The position numbers and the translations under genes were made by a program. 11,252 bases of DNA, from contig JBFMGU010000320.1 in assembly GCA_040752415.1 (NCBI GenBank), positions 1 to 11,252 of the forward strand, given 5' to 3'. This document shows positions 1,604 to 11,252 of the stretch, in pieces. Numbering within the stretch: position 1 is the first letter of the stretch; each line of letters opens with the position of its first letter. This stretch comes from Myxococcota bacterium (GTDB taxonomy: Bacteria > Myxococcota > JACRCW01). The notes below the pieces were generated by a model. The model searched no databases. It was not told where the DNA came from and worked only from the letters and a program-made list of their open reading frames with translations.

Positions 1604-3559
1604 TCAGCCGGCTCCTGACCCCGGCGTCACGGCCAGCGGCGTGACCGACGCGCGACGATCCTGCTGGAACAAGAGGCCGGTCAGCCGCGCCTCATCCAGG
1701 AACCCCACCACCTCCCCGCCCTTCCCCACCACCAGCAGCTCGCGCACCTGGGAACGCAGGAGGCGCTCGGCGGCCACGCGCACCGTGTCCCCCGGCGTCA
1801 CGGTCACGGCCGGCTGCATCACGTCCGCGGCCACCACCACGTCGGCATGGCCGTGTTGGGAGGCCAGCACCCGCAGGGTATCCGCGGTCACCATCCCGCG
1901 CAGGATGCCCGCGTCGTCGTAGATGGGGAACACGTCCTGCCACAGCGTGTCCCCCATGCGGCCCAACATGTCCTCCGCCGGCGTCGAGAGCCGGAAGGAG
2001 ACCGCGTTCTTGCGGACCGTCATCAACGGTTCAACCGTCAGCGTGTCCAACACGCCAGACGGATGCTCCGGGCCCGCACCGCGCACCGTGCTCAGTTGCT
2101 CGTGGTAGAGGCTGGTCCTGCGCAGCGCGACGAAGACGATCCCCAGGGCCAGCATCAGCGGGACCATGAGGTCGTAGTTGCCCGCCATCTCGCACACCAG
2201 CACCAGCGCGCTGAGCGGCACGTGCGCCACGCCGCCGTAGAACGCTCCCATTCCCACCAGCGCAAAAGCTCCCGCATCAATCCGGGCATCACCGGAGACC
2301 AGCTGCAGGGCGCGACCGAACGCCCCGCCAAAGAGCCCGCCAATGACCAGCGACGGCGCAAAGTCCCCGGCGCTGCCGCCGGAGCCGATGGTGACCGCGG
2401 AGGCGAGGATCTTCCCGGCCACCATCAGGCACAGCAATCCCACCGCGGTCCAGCCCGTCGACAGCCACGGCGCTCCGCTGATGGCCGCCTGCACGGCGCC
2501 GTAGCCGCTCCCCAGGATTCCCAGGCCGCTTCCGGGCTCGTCGACCTGGGGGCCCAGCACCATCAGCAGCGGCGCCATCACCAGGCCCAGGAGCAACGCC
2601 CCCGCGCCGGGCTGGACCCAGGCCGGGAGGCCGGAGCGCGTGCTGGCGCGACGCACGCCCTCCAGCGTCCGCACGAACACGTGAGCCAGGAACGCAATGC
2701 TCACCGCCAGCAGCGCGTAGTACGGGAGGTGCGCGGGGATGAACGCAAAGCGCGGCGCATGGGCAAACAGCGTGGACTCGCCGTAGACCGAGATGACCAC
2801 GGAGTAGGAGACCACGCTGGCGAGAATGGCGGGGACCAGCGCTTCCTGCTCGAACCCGTCGCGGTAGAGCACTTCCACGGCCAGCAGCGCGGCGCCCAGC
2901 GGCGTGCGGAAGACCGCGGAGATTCCCGCCGCCATCCCGGCCACCAGGAGGATGCGACGCTCCCGCGGGGTCACCGCCAGCACGCGCCCCACCGTCGAGC
3001 CGATGGCCGCGCCGATAAGCATGGTGGGCCCCTCCCGTCCGCCCGAGCCTCCCGTCCCCAGCGTCACCAACGACGCCAGCGGCTTGATGGCCAGCACCCT
3101 GGGATGCACCACCCCACCCGCGTGATGGAACGCCGCAATGGCCGCGTCCGCGCCGCCGCCTCGCGTCTCCGGGGCCAGGCGCACCAGGAGCCCGCAGGCC
3201 AGGCCGCCCAGGAGCATCACCACCGGCAGGAGCCACGGGCGGAACACCAGGTCTTCCACCGCCGAGGTGATCTGCTCGCCATGCGCGCGCAGCGGCTTGT
3301 ACCCGACGAGGATCTCCAGGAACACCCGCTGGCCGTACTCCAGCGCCGCGAAGAAGGTCGCCCCGACCACGCCGGCCACCAGCCCCACCACAGCGGCGTG
3401 CATCAGGGTCTTGCCGACGAGACGGAGGTCCACCGGGGCGGAGTCGTCCATGAGCAGCAGCAGGAGCCTCCGGTTCCGTGACCGCCACCACGAGACAAGC
3501 GCCGCCACCGCCGCCAGCGCGCCGCGGTGCCACGTCCCGAGTCGTTCTTCCCATCTCAT
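1604..3559 (-). CDS. CLC-family (EriC-like) chloride channel/transporter with C-terminal CBS domain pair; start uncertain (ATG 3559, ATG 3598 or TTG 3607)
   Basis: Motifs GGSGGREGP (gating Glu), FRTPLGA, GGSAGDFAP and SLY, with many hydrophobic helices. The C-terminus is CBS-like (VEPLMT...VFPIYDDAGILRGMVT...AADVMQPAVTVTPGDTV...LLVVGKGGEVVGFL). Confidence 0.92.
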   Translation of the reverse strand: MRWEERLGTWHRGALAAVAALVSWWRSRNRRLLLLLMDDSAPVDLRLVGKTLMHAAVVGLVAGVVGATFFAALEYGQRVFLEILVGYKPLRAHGEQITSAVEDLVFRPWLLPVVMLLGGLACGLLVRLAPETRGGGADAAIAAFHHAGGVVHPRVLAIKPLASLVTLGTGGSGGREGPTMLIGAAIGSTVGRVLAVTPRERRILLVAGMAAGISAVFRTPLGAALLAVEVLYRDGFEQEALVPAILASVVSYSVVISVYGESTLFAHAPRFAFIPAHLPYYALLAVSIAFLAHVFVRTLEGVRRASTRSGLPAWVQPGAGALLLGLVMAPLLMVLGPQVDEPGSGLGILGSGYGAVQAAISGAPWLSTGWTAVGLLCLMVAGKILASAVTIGSGGSAGDFAPSLVIGGLFGGAFGRALQLVSGDARIDAGAFALVGMGAFYGGVAHVPLSALVLVCEMAGNYDLMVPLMLALGIVFVALRRTSLYHEQLSTVRGAGPEHPSGVLDTLTVEPLMTVRKNAVSFRLSTPAEDMLGRMGDTLWQDVFPIYDDAGILRGMVTADTLRVLASQHGHADVVVAADVMQPAVTVTPGDTVRVAAERLLRSQVRELLVVGKGGEVVGFLDEARLTGLLFQQDRRASVTPLAVTPGSGAG

Positions 3560-3640
3560 CGGCTGAACCGCGTCCGCCCCAGGTCGCCCTGCCGTCATGA
3601 CGTGCAACGCGGGCGGGCTTAGTGACGGTGCCCTGACCTG

Positions 3641-4771
3641 TCAACCAGGACTGACCAGCCGGTCATCCCCGAGGTGGCGACGTGCCCCTGCGTGGTGACG
3701 TCGTGTGGTCCTCCCCGCGCAACCGCTCGGCGTTGGCGGTGGTCTCTCCGCGTATGTCACGCGCGGTGACGTCGGAGATGTTGGCCAGGTGATTGTGGCA
3801 ACCCGGCTTGGCGCGAGCGAGGCCTTCTCTTCGGCGCCCACGTCGGGACCGGGACCAAGCTGCGCCATCGCGCCGACGAAGGCCACGTAGAGCGCCAGCA
3901 GCAGCCATCCCCGACGACGTCCCAACACCCCGGTGGACGGAGGATAGGAGATCACCACCATCAGGGCGCCAAATGCCAACGCCACGCCCATCCGCGCCAA
4001 CGCCACCTCGGGCGGGTGGATGGTGGCCGCCACGCCGACGATGAACAGGTTGTTGAAGATGTTGCTCCCCAGCACCGTGCCCAGCCCCACCTCGTCATGT
4101 CCGCGCCATCGGCTCAGCACGGTGGTGGCCAGCTCCGGCACGGACGTGCCCACCGAGACGATGATGGCGCCAATGACAAAGGGCTCCAGCCCCCACCACA
4201 ACGCGATTCCCGTCGCGCCGCTCACCACCAGGCGCCCCGCCGCAAACAGCAGCACCAGGCCCGCCAGCCCCCGCGCCAGCGCGCGAAGACCGTGACTGCG
4301 CGCCAGCACATCCACCCTCTTGTCGGCGCCACGACGTGCGTCCCGCACCGTGACCCCCAACCACGCACCAAACATGCCCATCATCAGCAGGCCGTCCAGG
4401 CGGGACAGGCGTCCGTCGACGGCGAGGATGGCGGTGAGGACCGGCGCCAGGAGCGCCACGGGGAAATCACGACGCATGGAGCCGGTGGCACAACGGATGG
4501 GCCCCAGCGTCAACGCCAGCCCCAGGATGAGCCCGATGTTGACGACGTTGCTGCCCAGCGAGTCGCCCAGCGCGATGTGCGGCTCTCCGTCCCACGCCGC
4601 GTTGATAGCCACGGAAAGCTCCGGCGCGGACGTGGCGAAGGCCGCAAACGTGGCAGCCACCACGCCGGCGGAGATGCGCAACCAGCGTCCCAGGGCCACG
4701 GTGGCCCCCACAAACAACTCACCTCCGAGCGCCGCGAGGGCGAGACCGGCGAGGAGAAGGAGCACGTCCAT
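3641..4771 (-). CDS. Calcium/sodium:cation antiporter (CaCA superfamily, YrbG-like)
   Basis: Two alpha-repeats: ATSAPEL...GSNVVN and GTSVPEL...GSNIFN. About 10 TM segments. GAGGAG lies upstream on the minus strand (4785-4790), and the start is 17 bp after the nhaP stop. Confidence 0.92.
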   Translation of the reverse strand: MDVLLLLAGLALAALGGELFVGATVALGRWLRISAGVVAATFAAFATSAPELSVAINAAWDGEPHIALGDSLGSNVVNIGLILGLALTLGPIRCATGSMRRDFPVALLAPVLTAILAVDGRLSRLDGLLMMGMFGAWLGVTVRDARRGADKRVDVLARSHGLRALARGLAGLVLLFAAGRLVVSGATGIALWWGLEPFVIGAIIVSVGTSVPELATTVLSRWRGHDEVGLGTVLGSNIFNNLFIVGVAATIHPPEVALARMGVALAFGALMVVISYPPSTGVLGRRRGWLLLALYVAFVGAMAQLGPGPDVGAEEKASLAPSRVATITWPTSPTSPRVTYAERPPPTPSGCAGRTTRRHHAGARRHLGDDRLVSPG

Positions 4772-4788
4772 GCGGACACCCCCGCTCC

Positions 4789-6408
4789 TCAGCCGCCAGC
4801 CGCGCGCGCATCGGGCGGGGCCGGCGCCGGTGCGGAAGCCGTGGGGGCGGGAGCCGGCGCGTCCTCCAGCGAGGTGAGCCGGGCGTCAATGTCGGCCAGC
4901 AGCGAATCCAGCGCTTCGGATCCCACCACGCCCTTCTGGGCGGCCTGCAGCGCGGCGTCGCGCTCCGCCACCAGCACGCGACGACGGGCCGCACGTTCCT
5001 CCTCGTGACGGATCTCCGCGCGCTCCAGGTGCAGGCTCTTGAGCACCGCGTCCGCCTGCTCCACCTGGCGCCGGTATTCCGCCTCCAATCCGTCCAGCAC
5101 CGCGGAGGGCGCGGCATGCTCCCGACGCATCCGCTCCACCTCCTCGAGACCGGCTCCCGCGGCCTTCAGTCGCCCGCGCTCCAGCTCGTAACGCTGCTGC
5201 TCGTCGGAGCGGACACCCACGATCTTCAGGCGGCGCAGCAGGGGCGCCATGGTCAGTCCCTGCAACAGGATGGACAGCAGCACCACGCCAAAGGTCATGT
5301 TCACCAGCAGCACGCGGTGCGGGAAGTCCTGCGGCAGGCCCAGCACCAGCACCATGGACAACGCCCCGCGCAGGCCACTCCACACCACCACCGTCGACCA
5401 CGACCAGGGCACCCGCTCACTGGTGCGCTGCAGCAGCGCCGTCACAACGAACACCACCAGCGCGCGCCCCGCCATCACCGCCACCCACGCAATCACGATG
5501 GGCAGCCACGAGGCGAGGAGCTGGTCGACGTGGATCTCGAAGCCGATGAGCAGGAACACCACCGAGTTCAGCGCAAACGCGAGGTACTCCCAGAACGTCT
5601 CCACGGCCACGCGCGTGGTGGGGCTCATGCCGGTGCGCGCCGCGTAGTTGCCGCACAACATGCCCGCGCCCACCGCCGCCATCACGCCGGAGACGTGGAA
5701 GCGCTCCGCCAACACGAAGGAGCCGTAGGCGGCCACCATGGTGAGCGTCAGCTCGATCATGGCGTCGTCGATGTTGCGGATGATGTGGGAAGCGGCCAGC
5801 CCCACCGCCACGCCCACCAGCGCGCCCAGACCGGCCACGCGGATGAAGTCCACGACGGCGGAGCCGAGCGAGATGCCCCCGCCCGCCATGGCGCCGAGGA
5901 TGATCGTGAACACCACCACGCCGGTGCCGTCGTTGAGCAGGCTCTCTCCTTCCACCATGACCGCGAGCCGCTTGGGAGCGCCAAGGCTCTTGAACAGGCC
6001 CACCACCGCAATCGGGTCGGTGGCGGCGATCAGCGCGGCGAACACCAGGCCGTGCATGAAGGTGAACCCGGTGACGAACGCCAGCGCGTTGGCTGCCGGC
6101 ACCAGGATGGCCGCCGTGGCCAGGATGGCGACGATGAGCCCGGGAATCGCCAGCGCGTGGATGCTGGTCTTCTCCTTCCAGAACTTCGCGGCGTCGAGGT
6201 GGAACGCCGCCTCGAAGATCAACCCGGGCAGGATGACGGCGAAGAGGAGCTCCTTGGTGAGGTGCGGCGGCTCGAAGGCCTTGACCGTGCCCAGCGCCAG
6301 CCCCGCGAGCACCAACGCCACCGTGTAGGGCAGCTTCAGCCACCGCGCGCCAATGGCCACCGCCGTGGCGACGGAAAACAGGATCACGAAGAGGAATTCA
6401 GCGTGCAT
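4789..6408 (-). CDS. Na+/H+ antiporter, CPA1 family (NhaP/NhaG/YjcE-like), 539 aa
   Basis: ATG at 6408 with GGAGGT RBS (6414-6419). Motifs LPGLIFEAA, AATDPIAV, EGESLLNDG, HVSGVMA and GLRGA, followed by a charged cytoplasmic C-tail. The ORF-track extension to 6720 is probably spurious. Confidence 0.95.
   Translation of the reverse strand: MHAEFLFVILFSVATAVAIGARWLKLPYTVALVLAGLALGTVKAFEPPHLTKELLFAVILPGLIFEAAFHLDAAKFWKEKTSIHALAIPGLIVAILATAAILVPAANALAFVTGFTFMHGLVFAALIAATDPIAVVGLFKSLGAPKRLAVMVEGESLLNDGTGVVVFTIILGAMAGGGISLGSAVVDFIRVAGLGALVGVAVGLAASHIIRNIDDAMIELTLTMVAAYGSFVLAERFHVSGVMAAVGAGMLCGNYAARTGMSPTTRVAVETFWEYLAFALNSVVFLLIGFEIHVDQLLASWLPIVIAWVAVMAGRALVVFVVTALLQRTSERVPWSWSTVVVWSGLRGALSMVLVLGLPQDFPHRVLLVNMTFGVVLLSILLQGLTMAPLLRRLKIVGVRSDEQQRYELERGRLKAAGAGLEEVERMRREHAAPSAVLDGLEAEYRRQVEQADAVLKSLHLERAEIRHEEERAARRRVLVAERDAALQAAQKGVVGSEALDSLLADIDARLTSLEDAPAPAPTASAPAPAPPDARAAGG
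6348..6383. repeat. 36-bp direct repeat, copy 2 (inside the 5' end of the CPA1 antiporter gene)
   Basis: Matches 1561-1596 at 34/36 positions and encodes LFSVATAVAIG on the minus strand. Confidence 0.9.
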
Positions 6409-6440
6409 CGTCCACCTCCCGGCACGGGGGCGGGATGACG
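6409..6440 (-). promoter_or_regulatory. Putative RBS-sequestering hairpin of the antiporter operon
   Basis: On the minus strand, CGTC-A-TCCCG (6440-6431) can pair with CGGGA-GGTG-GACG (6421-6409), which covers the GGAGG Shine-Dalgarno immediately before the ATG. Confidence 0.45.
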
Positions 6441-6535
6441 GTGCGCGCGCCCGCGCGGAGTGCGCGGAGCAGGTTGATGAGATGGCGCCGTCCCAAGAAG
6501 GACCCCCAGCGGTCGCCGCCGCAGCGACGAGACCC

Positions 6536-6595
6536 GGGGGCGGCCCGACCCGCCGGGATACCTGCGGCGGCGGAATGGCCACCACACCCTTGGCT
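6536..6595 (-). ncRNA. Putative nhaA-I motif / Li+-I riboswitch aptamer
   Basis: Minus strand reads AAGGGTG-TGGTGGCCATTCCGCCGC-CGCAGG-TATCCCGGCG-GGTCGGGCCGCC-CC. The GGGUG, CAGG and GGUCGGGCCGCC blocks match my recollection of the nhaA-I consensus. GGGUG can pair with CGCCC, and GUGGUGG/CCGCCGC forms an internal hairpin. It lies in the 5' leader of a Na+/H+ antiporter gene. No covariance model was run. Confidence 0.65.
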
Positions 6596-6614
6596 CTGCA
6601 ACGAGAGCGGACGC

Positions 6615-6644
6615 CACGTAACCGGCGCGCCTTGCACGGGTCAA
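6615..6644 (-). promoter_or_regulatory. Possible sigma70-type promoter for the antiporter operon
   Basis: TTGACC (6644-6639), 17-18 nt spacer, then TTACGT/TACGTG (6621-6615). The implied TSS near 6608 lies just upstream of the putative riboswitch. Confidence 0.4.
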
Positions 6645-6912
6645 ATGCGTGCCGTGGCGCTGGCCCGTGCCGCCGCCCGGTGCCGGCCCGCACCACGTCC
6701 GCGCCTCCGCCCCGCACCATGATGGAGGACTCCCCGCAACCGCCTCGCTAGACCCTGGGGCCCACCCGCACTGGGGCGCGCATGCTCGAACGGCCGCGGC
6801 CGCGTGTCTCCGGACCTGCGCTTCACCGCCGCGAATGAGCAGGGCCGGCGGGCTGGCGGAGGGAACGGATTCTGCGTCGCGCCGCGGGTGGCGCAGGAAT
6901 GGGAGGACACGG

Positions 6913-9633
6913 ATGTCCGAGCTCATGCGAGATGGCTGGCACGCGCTGGACTCGCAAACCGTGCTGCACCGCCTGGCCGTGGAGCCCGCGCAGGGCCTGT
7001 CCGAGAGCGAGGTTGCGCTCCGACGACAACGCCACGGTCTCAACACACTCAAGCCCAGGCGGCCACGCCCCGCGCTGCTGCGCTTCCTGTCCCAGTTCCA
7101 TCAGCCGCTCATCTACATCCTGCTGGCGGCCACGGTGATCACCGCGGCGCTTCGCGAGTGGGTCGACGCCAGCGTCATCCTGGCCGTGGTGGTGCTCAAT
7201 GCCGTGGTGGGCTTCGTGCAGGAGTCCAAGGCGCTGCACGCCATTGCCGCGCTGGCGCGGACGCTGGTCTCCGAGGCCACCGTCATCCGTGACGGCAAGC
7301 GCCGCCGCGTCTCCGCCGCCGAGCTGGTGCCGGGGGACGTGGTGGTCCTGCAGTCCGGAGACAAGGTCCCGGCGGACCTCCGCCTCCTCACCACCCGCGA
7401 CCTGGAGGTCGACGAGTCCACGCTCACCGGAGAATCCCAGCCCGTACCCAAGCAGGCCGACATCACCCTGCCCCCCGACACGCTGCTCGCCGAGCGGCTG
7501 AACACCGCGTACGCCTCCACGAACGCCACCCGTGGGCAAGCGCTGGGCGTGGTGACCGCAACGGGCGACCGCACCGAAGTGGGACGCATCTCCGAGCTGA
7601 TGGCCAGCGCCGAGCAGGTGGCCACGCCGCTGACGCGCAAGATCCATCACTTCAGCCACCTCCTGCTCACCGCCATCCTCGCCCTGGCCCTGGCCACCTT
7701 CATCCTCGGCGTCTGGCGCGGAGAGTCGGCCTTCCACATGTTCATGGCCGCCGTGGCCCTCATGGTGGGCGCCATCCCGGAGGGACTGCCCGCCGCCATC
7801 ACCATCATGCTCGCGTTGGGCGTCTCCCGCATGGCCCATCGCCGCGCCGTGATCCGCAAGCTCCCGGCGGTGGAGACCTTGGGAAGCACCAACGTGATCT
7901 GCTCCGACAAAACCGGCACGCTGACCGAGAACCGCATGACGGTGACGCGCGTGCTCGCCGGCGGGGAGGTTGTGGAGGTGCCGGGCGCCGGGTACGCGGC
8001 CACGTCGTGGGAGGCCGCCAGCCGTCCCGCCCTGCGCGAGTGTCTCCGCGCTGGCCTGCTGTGCAACGACAGCCGCGTGGTCGAGCGCGAGGGTCACTGG
8101 CGCACGGAAGGAGACCCCACCGAGGGAGCCCTGCTGCTCGCCGCGTCCGCCGCCTGCCTGGACCTCGCGCTCGAGGAGCAACGGCATCCACGCCTGGACA
8201 CCATCCCCTTCGAGTCCAGCCACCAGTACATGGCCACGCTGCACGCTCCCGCGGGCGAAGGCCCAGCCGTGGTCTACCTGAAGGGTTCGGTGGAAGCCGT
8301 GCTCGCGCGCTGCGACCAGGTACTCGACGCCGCGGGAGCGACCATCCCCATCGACGCCAACGCCATCCACGGTGCCGCGGAGCGCATGGCCTCCGACGGA
8401 CTGCGGGTGCTCGCCCTGGCCCGCACCACCCTGCCCCCGGGACGTCGGGTGCTGAAGCCAGGTGAAGTGGCGCGCGGACTTACGTTCCTGGGGCTGCAGG
8501 GCATGCTGGACCCGCCGCGCGACGAGGCCCGCGTCGCGGTGCGCAAGTGTCGGAACGCCGGCATCGACGTCAAGATGATCACCGGTGATCACGCGCTGAC
8601 GGCGCGGGTGATTGCCGAGAAGCTGGGGCTGGGACCCGTGGGACGGAGCGGGCGGCCCGTGGCGCTGACCGGCCGGGAGCTGGACACGTTGGGCGAGGAG
8701 GAGCTCCAGCTCGCCGCGGAACAGACCACCGTCTTTGCGCGCGTCACGCCGGAACAGAAGCTGCGGCTGGTCAGGGCGCTGCAGACCCGCGGCCACGTGG
8801 TGGCCATGACCGGCGACGGCGTCAACGACGGCCCCGCGCTCAGGCAGGCCAACATCGGCATTGCCATGGGCATCACCGGCACGGACGTGGCCAAGGATGC
8901 GGCCGACATGGTGCTCATCGACGACAACTTCGCCTCCATCGAGGCGGCGGTGGAGGAAGGCCGCGGCGTCTTCGACAACCTCACGAAGTTCATCGTCTGG
9001 ACGCTGCCCACCAATCTGGGGGAGGCGCTCATCGTGCTGGCCTCGGTGGTGCTGGGGACCACCCTGCCGGTGCTGCCGGTGCAGATCCTGTGGATCAACA
9101 TGACCACCGCGGTGCTGCTGGGCCTGACCCTGGCCTTCGAGCCCGCCGAGCCCGACGTCATGGAGCGCCCGCCCCGCCCACCCGACGAGCCCATCCTGAC
9201 CCATGACCTCATCATGCGGACGCTCTTCGTGGGGAGCCTCATGCTGGTGGCGGGCATGGGACTGTTCGAGCTGGAGCTGGTGCGCGGCGCCTCGGAGGCG
9301 CAGGCCCGCACGGCCACCGTCAACAGCGTGGTGATGATGGAGCTGTTCTACCTCTTCAACTGTCGCTCCCTGGTGAAGCCCATGCGCGCGGTGGGCTGGG
9401 GGAGCAATCCGTGGGTGTTCGTGGGCTGCGGCGCCATGCTCCTCGTCCAGCTCCTGTTCACGTATTCCCCGGTGATGAACCGCCTGTTCAGCTCGGCGCC
9501 CATGCCGTTCGAGAGCTGGCTCCTCATTGTCCTGGCGGGAGTTGCCGTCCTGTTGCTGGTGGGCTTGGAGAAGAGCATCCGCCTGCGGCATGGCATGGGA
9601 GGGCCGCAGCGCGCGGTGGGTTCGGCCACCTGA
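6913..9633 (+). CDS. Cation-transporting P-type ATPase, P2A-like (CtpF/Pma1-type subgroup), 906 aa
   Basis: ATG at 6913 with GGAGGA RBS (6902-6907). Motifs LTGES, AIPEGLP, CSDKTGT (phospho-Asp codon 7906-7908), GDPTE, YLKGS, DPPR, MITGD, GDGVNDGPAL, TLPTNLGE and QILWINMTT. Confidence 0.96.
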   Translation: MSELMRDGWHALDSQTVLHRLAVEPAQGLSESEVALRRQRHGLNTLKPRRPRPALLRFLSQFHQPLIYILLAATVITAALREWVDASVILAVVVLNAVVGFVQESKALHAIAALARTLVSEATVIRDGKRRRVSAAELVPGDVVVLQSGDKVPADLRLLTTRDLEVDESTLTGESQPVPKQADITLPPDTLLAERLNTAYASTNATRGQALGVVTATGDRTEVGRISELMASAEQVATPLTRKIHHFSHLLLTAILALALATFILGVWRGESAFHMFMAAVALMVGAIPEGLPAAITIMLALGVSRMAHRRAVIRKLPAVETLGSTNVICSDKTGTLTENRMTVTRVLAGGEVVEVPGAGYAATSWEAASRPALRECLRAGLLCNDSRVVEREGHWRTEGDPTEGALLLAASAACLDLALEEQRHPRLDTIPFESSHQYMATLHAPAGEGPAVVYLKGSVEAVLARCDQVLDAAGATIPIDANAIHGAAERMASDGLRVLALARTTLPPGRRVLKPGEVARGLTFLGLQGMLDPPRDEARVAVRKCRNAGIDVKMITGDHALTARVIAEKLGLGPVGRSGRPVALTGRELDTLGEEELQLAAEQTTVFARVTPEQKLRLVRALQTRGHVVAMTGDGVNDGPALRQANIGIAMGITGTDVAKDAADMVLIDDNFASIEAAVEEGRGVFDNLTKFIVWTLPTNLGEALIVLASVVLGTTLPVLPVQILWINMTTAVLLGLTLAFEPAEPDVMERPPRPPDEPILTHDLIMRTLFVGSLMLVAGMGLFELELVRGASEAQARTATVNSVVMMELFYLFNCRSLVKPMRAVGWGSNPWVFVGCGAMLLVQLLFTYSPVMNRLFSSAPMPFESWLLIVLAGVAVLLLVGLEKSIRLRHGMGGPQRAVGSAT

Positions 9634-9698: not shown

Positions 9699-9815
9699 GG
9701 TCGGAGAGGGCCCGCCAACGGGTCGGAGTTGGCCCGCAGGCGGTCGGAGTTGGCCCGCAGGCGGTCGGAGTTGGCCCGTAGGCGGTCGGAGTTGGCCTTC
9801 GGGCGGTCGGAGTTG
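9699..9815. repeat. 21-bp tandem repeat GGTCGGAGTTGGCCCGCAGGC: 4 full units, 1 partial and 1 degenerate
   Basis: Units start at 9721, 9742, 9763 and 9784, with a partial unit at 9805-9815 and a degenerate 22-bp unit at 9699. Confidence 0.95.
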
Positions 9816-9864: not shown

Positions 9865-10725
9865 TCAGGCGTCGACCGGCTCGGGGGTCCCCGCGGCCTT
9901 CTTGGCGCCGCCCTTGGGCTTGAGGAAGTAGCTGCTGGAGGCGATGGGCTGCAGGAGCGGGACGTTGGGGTCGTCCTGGCGGGTGGCCCCAAACAGCGAG
10001 CGCAGCGCCGTCATGTGCGAGAGCACCCGGCCGTCCTGCTCATCCAGCTGCGCCTGCGTCACCGGTCCGGACACGCCGGCTCCGCTGGCCTTTCGCGCTG
10101 CGGCCTCCACCTCGTTGGCCAGCGCCGCGGCGGCCGTGAAGCGCTCGGCGGTCACCCGCGACGCCGCCAGGCGCCGACCCTGCACCGCGCCGGAGCTGAG
10201 CCACTGCAGTCCCAGCGCGCTGAGCTGCTTGAGGGATGCCACCAGGCCGTCGGTGTCCGGCGCGGTGCCGTGCGCGGTTTCCACGGCCGCCTGCGCGGTG
10301 TTGTCGCGAGCCGCGTTGCTCAACATGGCGTAGAGCGCGCGTCGCTCCGCCCTGCCCTGCAGCACCTTCTCCTCGGCGGCGGTGGCGTCCACCTCGCGCT
10401 GGTCGCTGACCACCTCGGCGCCGGCCCGACGGGCGCGGTTCCGCTGGTCCAGCTCCACCACGTCCTTCCAGAACACCCGCAGCTGCGCCGTGGAGAAACC
10501 CATCTGCTGCAGCTGTTCCGGCGTGGCCTGCGCGCAGAATTGCGCCACCTGGCCGCCCCAGCGGATGGCGTCGGTGAGGATCTTGCCGCTGCTGATGAGT
10601 CTGCCCATCTCCACCAGCTCCGCGGACGTGAGCGCCACGCTGAAGAGCTCGATCTCCTCGGGCGTGGCGGTCCCGACGAGAGCGGAAACGCTCTGCAGCG
10701 TGAAGGTGGCATTGGTGGTCGTCAT
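9865..10725 (-). CDS. Hypothetical, predicted all-alpha-helical protein (286 aa)
   Basis: ATG at 10725 with AAGGGGG RBS 5 nt upstream. Codons are GC3-rich and the Ala/Leu/Glu-rich composition looks natural, with amphipathic helices and a basic low-complexity C-tail. No catalytic motif was recognised. Confidence 0.8.
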   Translation of the reverse strand: MTTTNATFTLQSVSALVGTATPEEIELFSVALTSAELVEMGRLISSGKILTDAIRWGGQVAQFCAQATPEQLQQMGFSTAQLRVFWKDVVELDQRNRARRAGAEVVSDQREVDATAAEEKVLQGRAERRALYAMLSNAARDNTAQAAVETAHGTAPDTDGLVASLKQLSALGLQWLSSGAVQGRRLAASRVTAERFTAAAALANEVEAAARKASGAGVSGPVTQAQLDEQDGRVLSHMTALRSLFGATRQDDPNVPLLQPIASSSYFLKPKGGAKKAAGTPEPVDA

Positions 10726-10850
10726 GGAAACCCCCTTGGGTAGGTTGTGGTGGCCGGCGATCTAGCGGGGGCGCTCAGGATTGGGAAGCGAGGTCCAGGA
10801 AGTTCCAGCGAAGCGCATAGTATGCGGGCCTATGGGGCCGACGCTCTCCC

Positions 10851-11015
10851 GCCAATGAGATTGGGCGCGGCTCTCTTGGGACGACGCCCTGGACTCCCTG
10901 CCAATCTCATTGGGCGCGCCTCTATTGGGACGACGCCCTGGACTCGCTGCCAATCTCATTGGGCGCGCCTCTATTGGGACGACGCCCTGGACTCCCTGCC
11001 AATGAGATTGGCAGG
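10851..11015. repeat. 49-bp tandem repeat (3 full units plus partial) with palindromic CCAAT-NNN-ATTGG core
   Basis: Units are 10851-10899, 10900-10948 and 10949-10997, with a partial unit from 10998. Consensus GCCAAT(GAG/CTC)ATTGGGCGCGCCTCTATTGGGACGACGCCCTGGACTCCCT. Confidence 0.95.
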
Positions 11016-11252
11016 CAACAAGACGACAAGTCCTGCTCACCTCTCGCGGCGGTGTCGATTTCGCAGGACTACCCTGGAAGAGGCGTGCAGGCGGAGAGGG
11101 ACGACCGAGCACCGATCCACTCACCGTCAGTCCTTTTGTGGGAGGGAATGTCAACACAGATCTGCCCGTCACGTCCCACGTCCGAGCTTTGCGCTGGACA
11201 TGGAGCGTCCGCCACGAGTCGGCACGCGCTTCGGGCGGCGAAATGGTGTCGA

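Follow-up and report, generated by a model that had tools for sequence, protein, structure and literature searches.

A 49-bp tandem array in a Myxococcota genome as the putative multiplied end-piece of a REPIN-like foldback element

The described systems closest to the locus treated here are the REPINs (doublets of repetitive extragenic palindromic [REP] sequences that form hairpins) together with the REP-associated tyrosine transposases (RAYTs), which have been studied as long-lived, vertically inherited replicators, mostly in Proteobacteria. According to the available text of the work on REPINs in SBW25 (PMC3116915), REPIN clusters adjoin RAYT genes, tandem arrays of both REPs and REPINs exist, and REPINs insert beside existing REPINs; a group of IS200 transposases with RAYT-like behaviour is described in the available part of a further report (PMC5581495). 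We describe the same organisation in a poorly sampled lineage of the Myxococcota. The window analysed is a stretch of 11,252 nucleotides (nt), the whole of contig C247 of an 11.0-Mb draft genome (520 contigs, 68.9% guanine plus cytosine [G+C]); other C-numbers (C24, C36, C11 and so on) are contigs of the same draft. Near one end of the window is a tandem array of 49-base-pair (bp) units, which carry short palindromes with a 3-nt core in either of two orientations. As judged from sequence comparison, this array is probably the multiplied end-piece of a hairpin repeat element belonging to a family that we designate family A.

The units of the array are composed of a 13-nt hairpin, H, and a 36-nt linker, S, numbered H1 to H4 and S1 to S3 from left to right (Table 1). 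A prior inspection of the letters of the window (the sequence-only reading) had described four CCAAT-NNN-ATTGG palindromes with a period of 49 and the cores GAG, CTC, CTC and GAG, and direct reading confirmed them: CCAATGAGATTGG is found at 10852-10864 and 10999-11011 and CCAATCTCATTGG at 10901-10913 and 10950-10962, the first motif starting one base off the 10851 noted originally. The remainder of each unit was said to stay in direct orientation, and all three linkers do point the same way. The long-range inverted repeats are exact (10897-10913 with 10999-11015, 17 nt; 10947-10962 with 10999-11014, 16 nt), and both the terminal palindrome at 10995-11015 (CCTGCCAAT-GAG-ATTGGCAGG, with a 9-bp stem) and the GGGCG/CGCCC pair within the units were found as described; in a second linker subfamily the sides of this pair are changed to GGGTG and CGCTC. 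Tandem Repeats Finder delimits the array as 10846-11003 (period 49, 3.2 copies, 92% matches, score 267), and a repeat search of the window returned three direct 63-nt copies with spacings of 49 and 49. There are four matches to CCAATNNNATTGG in the window versus 0.09 expected; the array is beyond chance, as this number was reached in none of 200 shuffled sequences. When 10830-11134 is folded as a single strand (z = -3.9), H1 pairs with H2 and H3 with H4, a linker being enclosed each time.

The segment from 10947 to 11134 shares 93.9-96.6% identity (BLAST) with family-A copies on C24, C36, C357 and C171, which identifies the array as the outer part of the left arm of one such element. Family A is a non-autonomous, REPIN-like foldback with two inverted arms. 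Most copies of the motif build foldback elements of approximately 200 bp, in which each arm has the hairpin H flanked on the outer side by the linker S and on the inner side by conserved blocks. Where neighbouring motifs are spaced 170-200 bp apart, the left core is GAG in 22 of 22 doublets and the right core is CTC (17), TTC (4) or CTT (1). Alignments of these doublets (21 and 20 copies) show a long imperfect palindrome, which runs from the inner 9-bp-stem H through the blocks GTCCTGCTCACC and TCGCAGGACTGAC and a variable centre of approximately 50 nt to the mirrored blocks and H(CTC); the left-end hairpin is invariant in all 20 aligned elements. Beyond the linker there is usually one worn H-like motif; this outer hairpin, the linker and the inner H, with one more local hairpin, make up an arm of approximately 100-140 nt. 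When one copy was folded as single-stranded DNA, the energy was -135.6 kcal/mol (z = -17). In 20 copies, 96.7% of 917 cells pair from arm to arm, a share that drops to 28-47% on shifting the partner by 1-3 columns, and 41 cells are changed on both sides versus 17.9 ± 4.3 in shuffles (reached by 0/500). The arms match within subfamilies and so appear to be copied as a unit; selection on structure is not thereby shown. A classical miniature inverted-repeat transposable element (MITE) of a DDE transposon has terminal inverted repeats and a target-site duplication of fixed length; inverted arms are present here, while by eye approximately 25 outer-end flanks have no consistent target duplication, with the boundary blurred by the worn outer hairpin.

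Exact copies of CCAATGAGATTGG occur 99 times in the genome (52 forward and 47 reverse), compared with none for the backwards control, and for any other spacer length there are 0-1 CCAAT/ATTGG palindromes. CCAAT-N3-ATTGG sites number 111 genome-wide: 99 have a GAG or CTC core, and the core of the remaining 12 is mostly one change from one of these. By a crude codon-position criterion (G+C at third positions, GC3), 55 of 61 motif clusters are outside likely coding open reading frames (ORFs), while the other six are inside stop-to-stop frames that possibly overrun the true start. This distribution is in keeping with the earlier suggestion of an element similar to REPs or to bacterial interspersed mosaic elements (BIMEs). 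Clusters for which both neighbouring genes are seen lie between tandem (15), convergent (8) or divergent (2) gene pairs, so that copies are found at gene ends of every kind, with no fixed strand relation. Thirty-six of the 99 exact copies are within 400 bp of a contig end (3.7 expected), suggesting that assembly breaks are caused by the repeats or by something they contain.

Outside this genome, no real copies were found in the other genomes or the metagenomes searched. A 15-mer with 59 occurrences here occurs once in one of 40 relatives, and the 13-mer has one single match, taken as chance, in the three other genomes of the class. Searching 185,579 species genomes with an 18-mer gave 20 single matches in unrelated taxa, where by our own calculation approximately 17 are expected by chance. 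A 20-mer has two matches in metagenomes, both to one coding-looking sequence with 49-50% G+C and without the other conserved blocks, and a unique 26-nt flank, used to look for the orthologous locus, has no matches in metagenomes.

The sequence-only reading had advised a search for nearby RAYT genes. A profile search of the genome with PF01797 (Y1_Tnp) identified two loci, and at one of these, on C24, a Y1 transposase gene is flanked by motif copies in inverted orientation. This locus is a longer copy of family A: its intact, IS200-like gene occupies part of the interval from H(GAG) at 5762 to H(CTC) at 6373, and each of the four conserved arm blocks is in place. Its product aligns with IS608 TnpA (E = 5e-8) with the HUH motif and the tyrosine of the C-terminal helix in register, and its best solved relatives are the TnpA proteins of IS608 and ISDra2. 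The gene is single-copy (one locus at 100% identity in the 520-contig draft), and a gene-less family-A copy with an extra [H + S] is located directly upstream of it. No close homologue of the protein was found in 40 relatives (best 34% identity) or in three relatives of the same class. IS200/IS605 and REP-associated Y1 enzymes recognize hairpins on single-stranded DNA; by analogy, and at somewhat better than an even chance, the C24 enzyme would mobilize the short copies in trans by recognizing the H hairpin on single-stranded DNA. The gene, its arms and the gene-less copy (C24:5475-6385) are wedged between flgE and flbD in a flagellar gene cluster, as assigned with Pfam.

The second Y1 gene is at the start of its contig (C12:24-440) and encodes a protein 39% identical to that of C24. 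After it, at 449-632, come two copies, in direct orientation, of a double hairpin of another kind, which recurs in only three contigs, and the gene and these hairpins may be a second, nearly extinct repeat-transposase pair. This gene was considered as the driver of family A and rejected because the hairpins that flank it are a different low-copy repeat.

Hairpin H also bounds other foldbacks: one of 630 bp (87% self-complementary) with longer relatives, and one of 353 bp (80% self-complementary). These families start with approximately 25 linker-like nt, and the larger ones have internal subrepeats of approximately 145 bp and no obvious gene. As H bounds several foldback families, it serves them as a common joint within a modular repeat system. 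On C119, a truncated family-A element is abutted by an unrelated dispersed repeat (approximately 230 bp; C119:18301-18530 and at least 40 other places, 80-90% identity between copies).

How often the core is flipped was determined by classing the 99 exact hairpins by 10 nt on each side, each hairpin being oriented by its context. Fifty-one hairpins between a linker and an element interior have GAG. Between a linker and another linker (or the start of family B or C), 24 have GAG and 4 have CTC, and the 20 hairpins in other contexts have mostly GAG. The four flipped sites are H2 and H3 of the window, C11 34239 and C24 47646. Unit H2+S2 differs from H3+S3 at a single base, and their linkers share changes (Table 1), so the two represent a single flipped unit that was duplicated in tandem. 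C11 terminates in a genuine right arm, which belongs to the subfamily of the window element, bears the same insertion (described below) and reads inward as GAG-S-CTC-S-GAG(inner). It is approximately 8-10% diverged from the window arm and differs in its linker variants; C11 is probably the missing arm of the window element rather than an arm of a copy of that element. In the alternative arm, on C42, the linker is truncated and the outer hairpins are unflipped and worn. Since the flip is common to the window and C11 either way, there have been 2-3 independent events at most genome-wide.

The view that GAG would hardly become CTC by three point mutations is upheld by the other core variants, which are mostly single changes. 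The three coordinated changes invoked on that basis reduce to one event and a tandem duplication, and the GAG-CTC-GAG layout recurs on C11. One subfamily has kept a left GAG and a right TTC unchanged in four copies, so the cores are stably copied, which in turn makes a frequently operating switch unlikely. The flipped cores look like a fixed relic and not a working switch. With a flipped core, the direct repeats become mini-foldbacks of 62 nt, which imitate the pairing of a left end with a right end.

The overall explanation that we regard as likely is that the array forms the outer portion of the left arm in a REPIN-like element of family A, a family with its own Y1 gene, and that the flip is a fixed relic. 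Tandem multiplication of the [H + S] end module would give the 49-bp periodicity, and one old flip event followed by tandem duplication would give units 2 and 3. To account for the flip itself, two elements would once have been arranged head to tail with one shared linker, and the body of the upstream element would have been lost between the direct repeats of CCTGCCAAT that start both end hairpins, either through slippage across the foldback or through excision by the transposase. The distal hairpin with its CTC core, left between two direct linkers, would be the scar; the same loss next to a family-B module would produce linker-H(CTC)-B, the type seen at C24 47646. Slippage deletion across a foldback is a well-known fate of palindromes. 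As for excision, REPIN excision products do not span the whole REPIN in the available text of the SBW25 study (PMC3116915). Filled analogues are present in the genome: linker-H(GAG)-body-H(CTC)-linker is found at C36 13328-13553 and C93 96-316, in both cases with a single linker between the H(CTC) of the first element and the H(GAG) of the second, and C308 7557-7761 has the same layout with H(CTC) abutting a family-B module, which matches the flipped site at C24 47646.

We tentatively prefer such a scar, to which we give a little less than an even chance, over an origin of the CTC cores in place, because these precursors exist in the genome and because 9-bp-stem hairpins never flip. An origin in place, which we consider rather unlikely, would involve a nascent strand switching template across the CCAAT/ATTGG stem and thereby inverting the 3-nt loop, with the identity of the element unchanged. 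The change is indeed an exact reverse complement limited to the 3-nt core with both flanks intact, and the other variants of the core are mostly single substitutions; template switching at quasi-palindromes is known in bacteria, and small hairpin inversions are a class of change described for chloroplast genomes. However, the outer hairpins, with a 5-bp stem and a 3-nt loop, are a poor substrate, and the inner hairpins with their 9-bp stem should flip more readily, yet all 22 doublets hold GAG on the left and a CTC-type core on the right. The private TTC core is unflipped in its four copies, and only 2-3 events have occurred among 99 hairpins. Two further routes were rejected: a target duplication, with a linker inserting in the hairpin loop, would give like cores (those of the window are mixed), and inversion of a larger segment between two hairpins does not agree with linkers that stay direct. 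Improbable in our view is a more active role, in which the 3-nt loop, being GAG on one DNA strand and CTC on its complement, serves the Y1 transposase as a strand selector, the 49-bp unit is a minimal substrate that can be excised, reinserted and amplified, flipped cores are scars of single transposition or excision events, and the 13-nt joint is a docking site shared by at least three foldback families.

The sequence-only reading had also raised a recombinase or nuclease acting on the hairpin and selection for alternative RNA folds, neither of which the data support. An active, reversible switch, with a recombinase or nuclease flipping the core and the array acting as phase-variable control of the gene at 9865-10725, might be suggested by inverted arms around an asymmetric core, which look like recombination sites, and by the position of the array 126 bp upstream of the start of that gene. 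We regard it as scarcely credible: no recombinase family is represented among the ORFs of the window, an invertible segment of 3 bp is far below known sizes, orientation is constant in 22/22 doublets, the flipped state is kept between two arms that are approximately 8-10% diverged, and the motif is a dispersed repeat that is not tied to one promoter; a scan of the window found no promoter-like sites. Quite improbable, too, is the reading of the units as functional host sequence, be it a structured RNA family with products of approximately 49 nt (compare the alternative RNA folds proposed earlier) or an array of operators for a regulator that binds CCAAT-N3-ATTGG. The region 10830-11134 does fold better than shuffled sequence, with the z score given above, and REP sequences elsewhere are credited with secondary roles in mRNA stability and host-protein binding. 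Against this, Rfam recognized no family in either the array or the ends of the insertion (a single sub-threshold microRNA match lies outside the array), the scan found no terminator-like sites either, and copies are present at all kinds of gene ends irrespective of strand; moreover, the best-conserved context of the motif is the transposase-bearing foldback, and the family is absent from the three other genomes of the class. Very unlikely is an assembly artefact, in which the array, its unit number or its mixed cores would derive from collapsed or chimeric repeat copies. The array is 237 bp from a contig end in a fragmented draft, 36 of the 99 motif copies are near contig ends, and units 2 and 3 differ at a single base; yet the contig break is due to a different repeat (the insertion at 11135), the left side of the array is joined to unique sequence, and an independent contig, C11, has the same mixed-core layout with other linker variants.

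Several points weigh against the explanation we prefer. A deletion scar and an inversion of the loop predict the identical sequence, and the CTG flank that a scar needs is present in 4/4 flipped sites but also in 14/24 unflipped ones (p ~0.15, own calculation). The C24 protein is below both NCBIfam cut-offs (IS200 model NF033573, 51.7 bits versus 55; RayT model NF047646, 25.7 bits versus 80), and the link between this protein and the repeats depends on a single locus. Covariation is weak: 7 pairs have changes on both sides, as against 5.2 after shuffling, and a count this high was attained in 68 of 500 shuffles; the matching of the arms may be plain inheritance within subfamilies. The family is known from one draft genome only (520 contigs, 4.29% contamination). 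Finally, the number of 49-bp units may be misstated by short-read assembly; contigs of one sequencing run (share 0.10) cover 10391-10435 and 11126-11252, outside the array.

The window element is interrupted within its right arm: the contig ends at 11252 because a multi-copy insertion begins at 11135. Its left junction is present on five contigs (C247, C119, C422, C248 and C367) and its right junction (...GATGCCT^GCGAAAC) on six (C42, C11, C94, C5, C161 and C27), in every case at the identical base of the conserved stem and in two family-A subfamilies. Both junctions end in CCT, with no evident duplication. The body of the insertion and its transposase are absent from the assembly, and the IS110-type DEDD domain (PF01548) has no matches in the genome. 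A 9-nt copy of the left target flank is located approximately 130 nt inside the left end of the insertion, although a 9-nt match to some part of the 35-nt target also arises in 125 of 2000 shuffles; this match would fit a guide-RNA element of the IS110/IS1111 type. Comparison of the 332-nt left end with 300 other genomes of the phylum gave only a 37-nt and a 31-nt match, of which the 37-nt match lies between ordinary genes and not in an insertion sequence. This site-specific insertion, splitting the right arm at 11134/11135, would have come later than the events that formed the array and the flip.

The coordinates of all features are collected in Table 1. The protein encoded next to the array (286 amino acids [aa]) has no Pfam match, and 10744-11252 has no coding bias by codon-position G+C. 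Farther to the left, 1604-9633 is a run of ion-transport genes, and a 1001-aa minus-strand ORF opposite the ATPase gene is a shadow frame by the same measure. A 21-bp tandem repeat (9699-9815, 5.5 copies, 88% matches) is situated between the ATPase gene and the gene for the 286-aa protein.

Table 1. Features of the window, followed by related loci on other contigs of the draft genome
Feature	Location	Strand	Remarks
ClC channel with CBS domain	1604-3607	-	
Na/Ca exchanger	3641-4771	-	
Na/H exchanger	4789-6720	-	
P-type cation ATPase	6649-9633	+	
Gene, 286 aa	9865..10725	-	G+C by codon position 0.70/0.51/0.92, typical of real genes here
Putative worn remnant of a further linker module, outer edge of left arm	10830..10851	.	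Ends ...GACGCTCTCCCG; by-eye likeness to 3' part of linker S; context "other" in the hairpin classification, assignment weak
Hairpin H1, CCAAT-GAG-ATTGG, 5-bp stem	10852..10864	.	Usual orientation relative to linker; GAG in 24/28 linker-H-linker hairpins
Linker S1, 36 nt, direct	10865..10900	+	~90 S-like modules genome-wide
Hairpin H2, flipped core CTC	10901..10913	.	Among the 4 flipped hairpins of linker-H-linker context genome-wide
Linker S2	10914..10949	+	Two changes common to S2 and S3, absent from S1 (GCGCGCC..CTATT)
Hairpin H3, flipped core CTC, duplicate of H2	10950..10962	.	Direct reading and context classification
Linker S3	10963..10998	+	Direct reading, linker comparison
Inner hairpin H4, CCTGCCAAT-GAG-ATTGGCAGG, 9-bp stem, 3-nt loop	10995..11015	.	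Conserved left-end hairpin of family A
Family-A element body	11016..11134	+	Left-arm blocks, variable centre, first 9 nt of right arm
Left-arm block GTCCTGCTCACC	11030-11041		
Left-arm block TCGCAGGACT	11061-11070		
Right-arm start GTCAGTCCT	11126-11134		
Left end of multi-copy insertion	11135..11252	+	Splits right arm at GTCAGTCCT^GCGA; contig ends within insertion
Same insertion elsewhere	C119:18587-18918, C42:1-115, C11 end, C94:8-127, C5 end		
Y1 transposase gene, 134 aa	C24:5888-6289		PF01797, 59.6 bits versus cut-off 23
Other foldback families, GAG left and CTC right	C42:18025-18654, C71:177-1044, C479:1389-2189, C357:4001-4353		630-870 bp and 353 bp

A 13-nt joint shared among families, together with rare flipped cores, could record at the sequence level how elements are lost or moved. 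That the enzyme falls on the IS200 side bears on whether such domestication arose more than once; a RAYT-like IS200 group is noted in PMC5581495. In practical terms, many of the contig breaks in this assembly trace to the repeats and to the insertion targeting them, and annotation of the array as a regulatory switch is to be avoided.

Among known systems, family A is most like the REPIN-RAYT system of Pseudomonas fluorescens SBW25. From the available text of the two reports (Bertels and Rainey 2011, PMC3116915; Bertels et al. 2017, PMC5581495), the two have in common abundant extragenic palindromes and inverted doublets that fold into a hairpin; they further share a single-copy Y1 (HUH) gene with the same repeats inverted around it and a repeat cluster beside it, as well as tandem arrays and elements inserted next to elements (PMC3116915). 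The C24 protein differs from a RAYT in being nearer by sequence to IS200 TnpA than to the curated RayT model. Whereas a typical REP is 20-60 nt long, family-A arms are long (approximately 100-140 nt) and modular, and by eye no GT[AG]G tetranucleotide adjoins the hairpin, either in the window or among the aligned elements. Such a tetranucleotide is reportedly conserved at the 5' end of REPs, as Nunvar and colleagues are said to have found in 2010. Family A, unlike a REPIN, moreover shares its end hairpin with two or more further foldback families (630 and 353 bp).

The BIMEs of Escherichia coli, generally known as mosaics of REPs, or palindromic units, associated with TnpA-REP, resemble the array in being intergenic, tandem palindromes with conserved linkers and an asymmetric palindrome. 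In BIMEs, however, whole units alternate and there are two kinds of linker, whereas the linkers here are one module in direct orientation and only the 3-nt core differs, at 4/28 sites; alternating units with distinct head-to-head and tail-to-tail linkers were not found. With the IS200/IS605 family and its gene-less palindrome-associated transposable elements (PATEs), as commonly described, family A shares a Y1 HUH transposase, end hairpins and the lack of an obvious target duplication. The end hairpins of IS200/IS605 elements are similar and on the same strand, in contrast to the long inverted arms of family A, and the autonomous element there is multi-copy, in contrast to the single-copy Y1 gene here, with which approximately 30 gene-less foldbacks share arms.

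For the flipped core, the minute hairpin-loop inversions of chloroplast genomes and the deletion of palindromes between short direct repeats, as generally described, are both stem-loop-based processes, either of which gives a CTC core. We know of no case in which either has been held to be the source of core polarity in bacterial REP arrays, no targeted search of the literature having been made. As to a site-specific invertible switch with a dedicated recombinase, no recombinase family was found among the ORFs of the window, and orientation is fixed in 22/22 doublets. Insertion sequences that target REP sequences (Tobes and Pareja 2006, PMC1525189; ISPpu9, PMC12288879), including IS110/IS1111 elements with guide RNAs (PMC11208160, PMC11187229), are similar, in the available parts of these reports, to the insertion at 11135, which occupies one exact site of the repeat stem in at least five copies. 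Taken together, the array is explained by a known kind of system, namely REP/REPIN-like foldbacks with an associated Y1 transposase, and its variant features are the IS200-like enzyme, the long modular arms, the 13-nt joint shared by families, the rare flipped cores and the repeat-targeting insertion.

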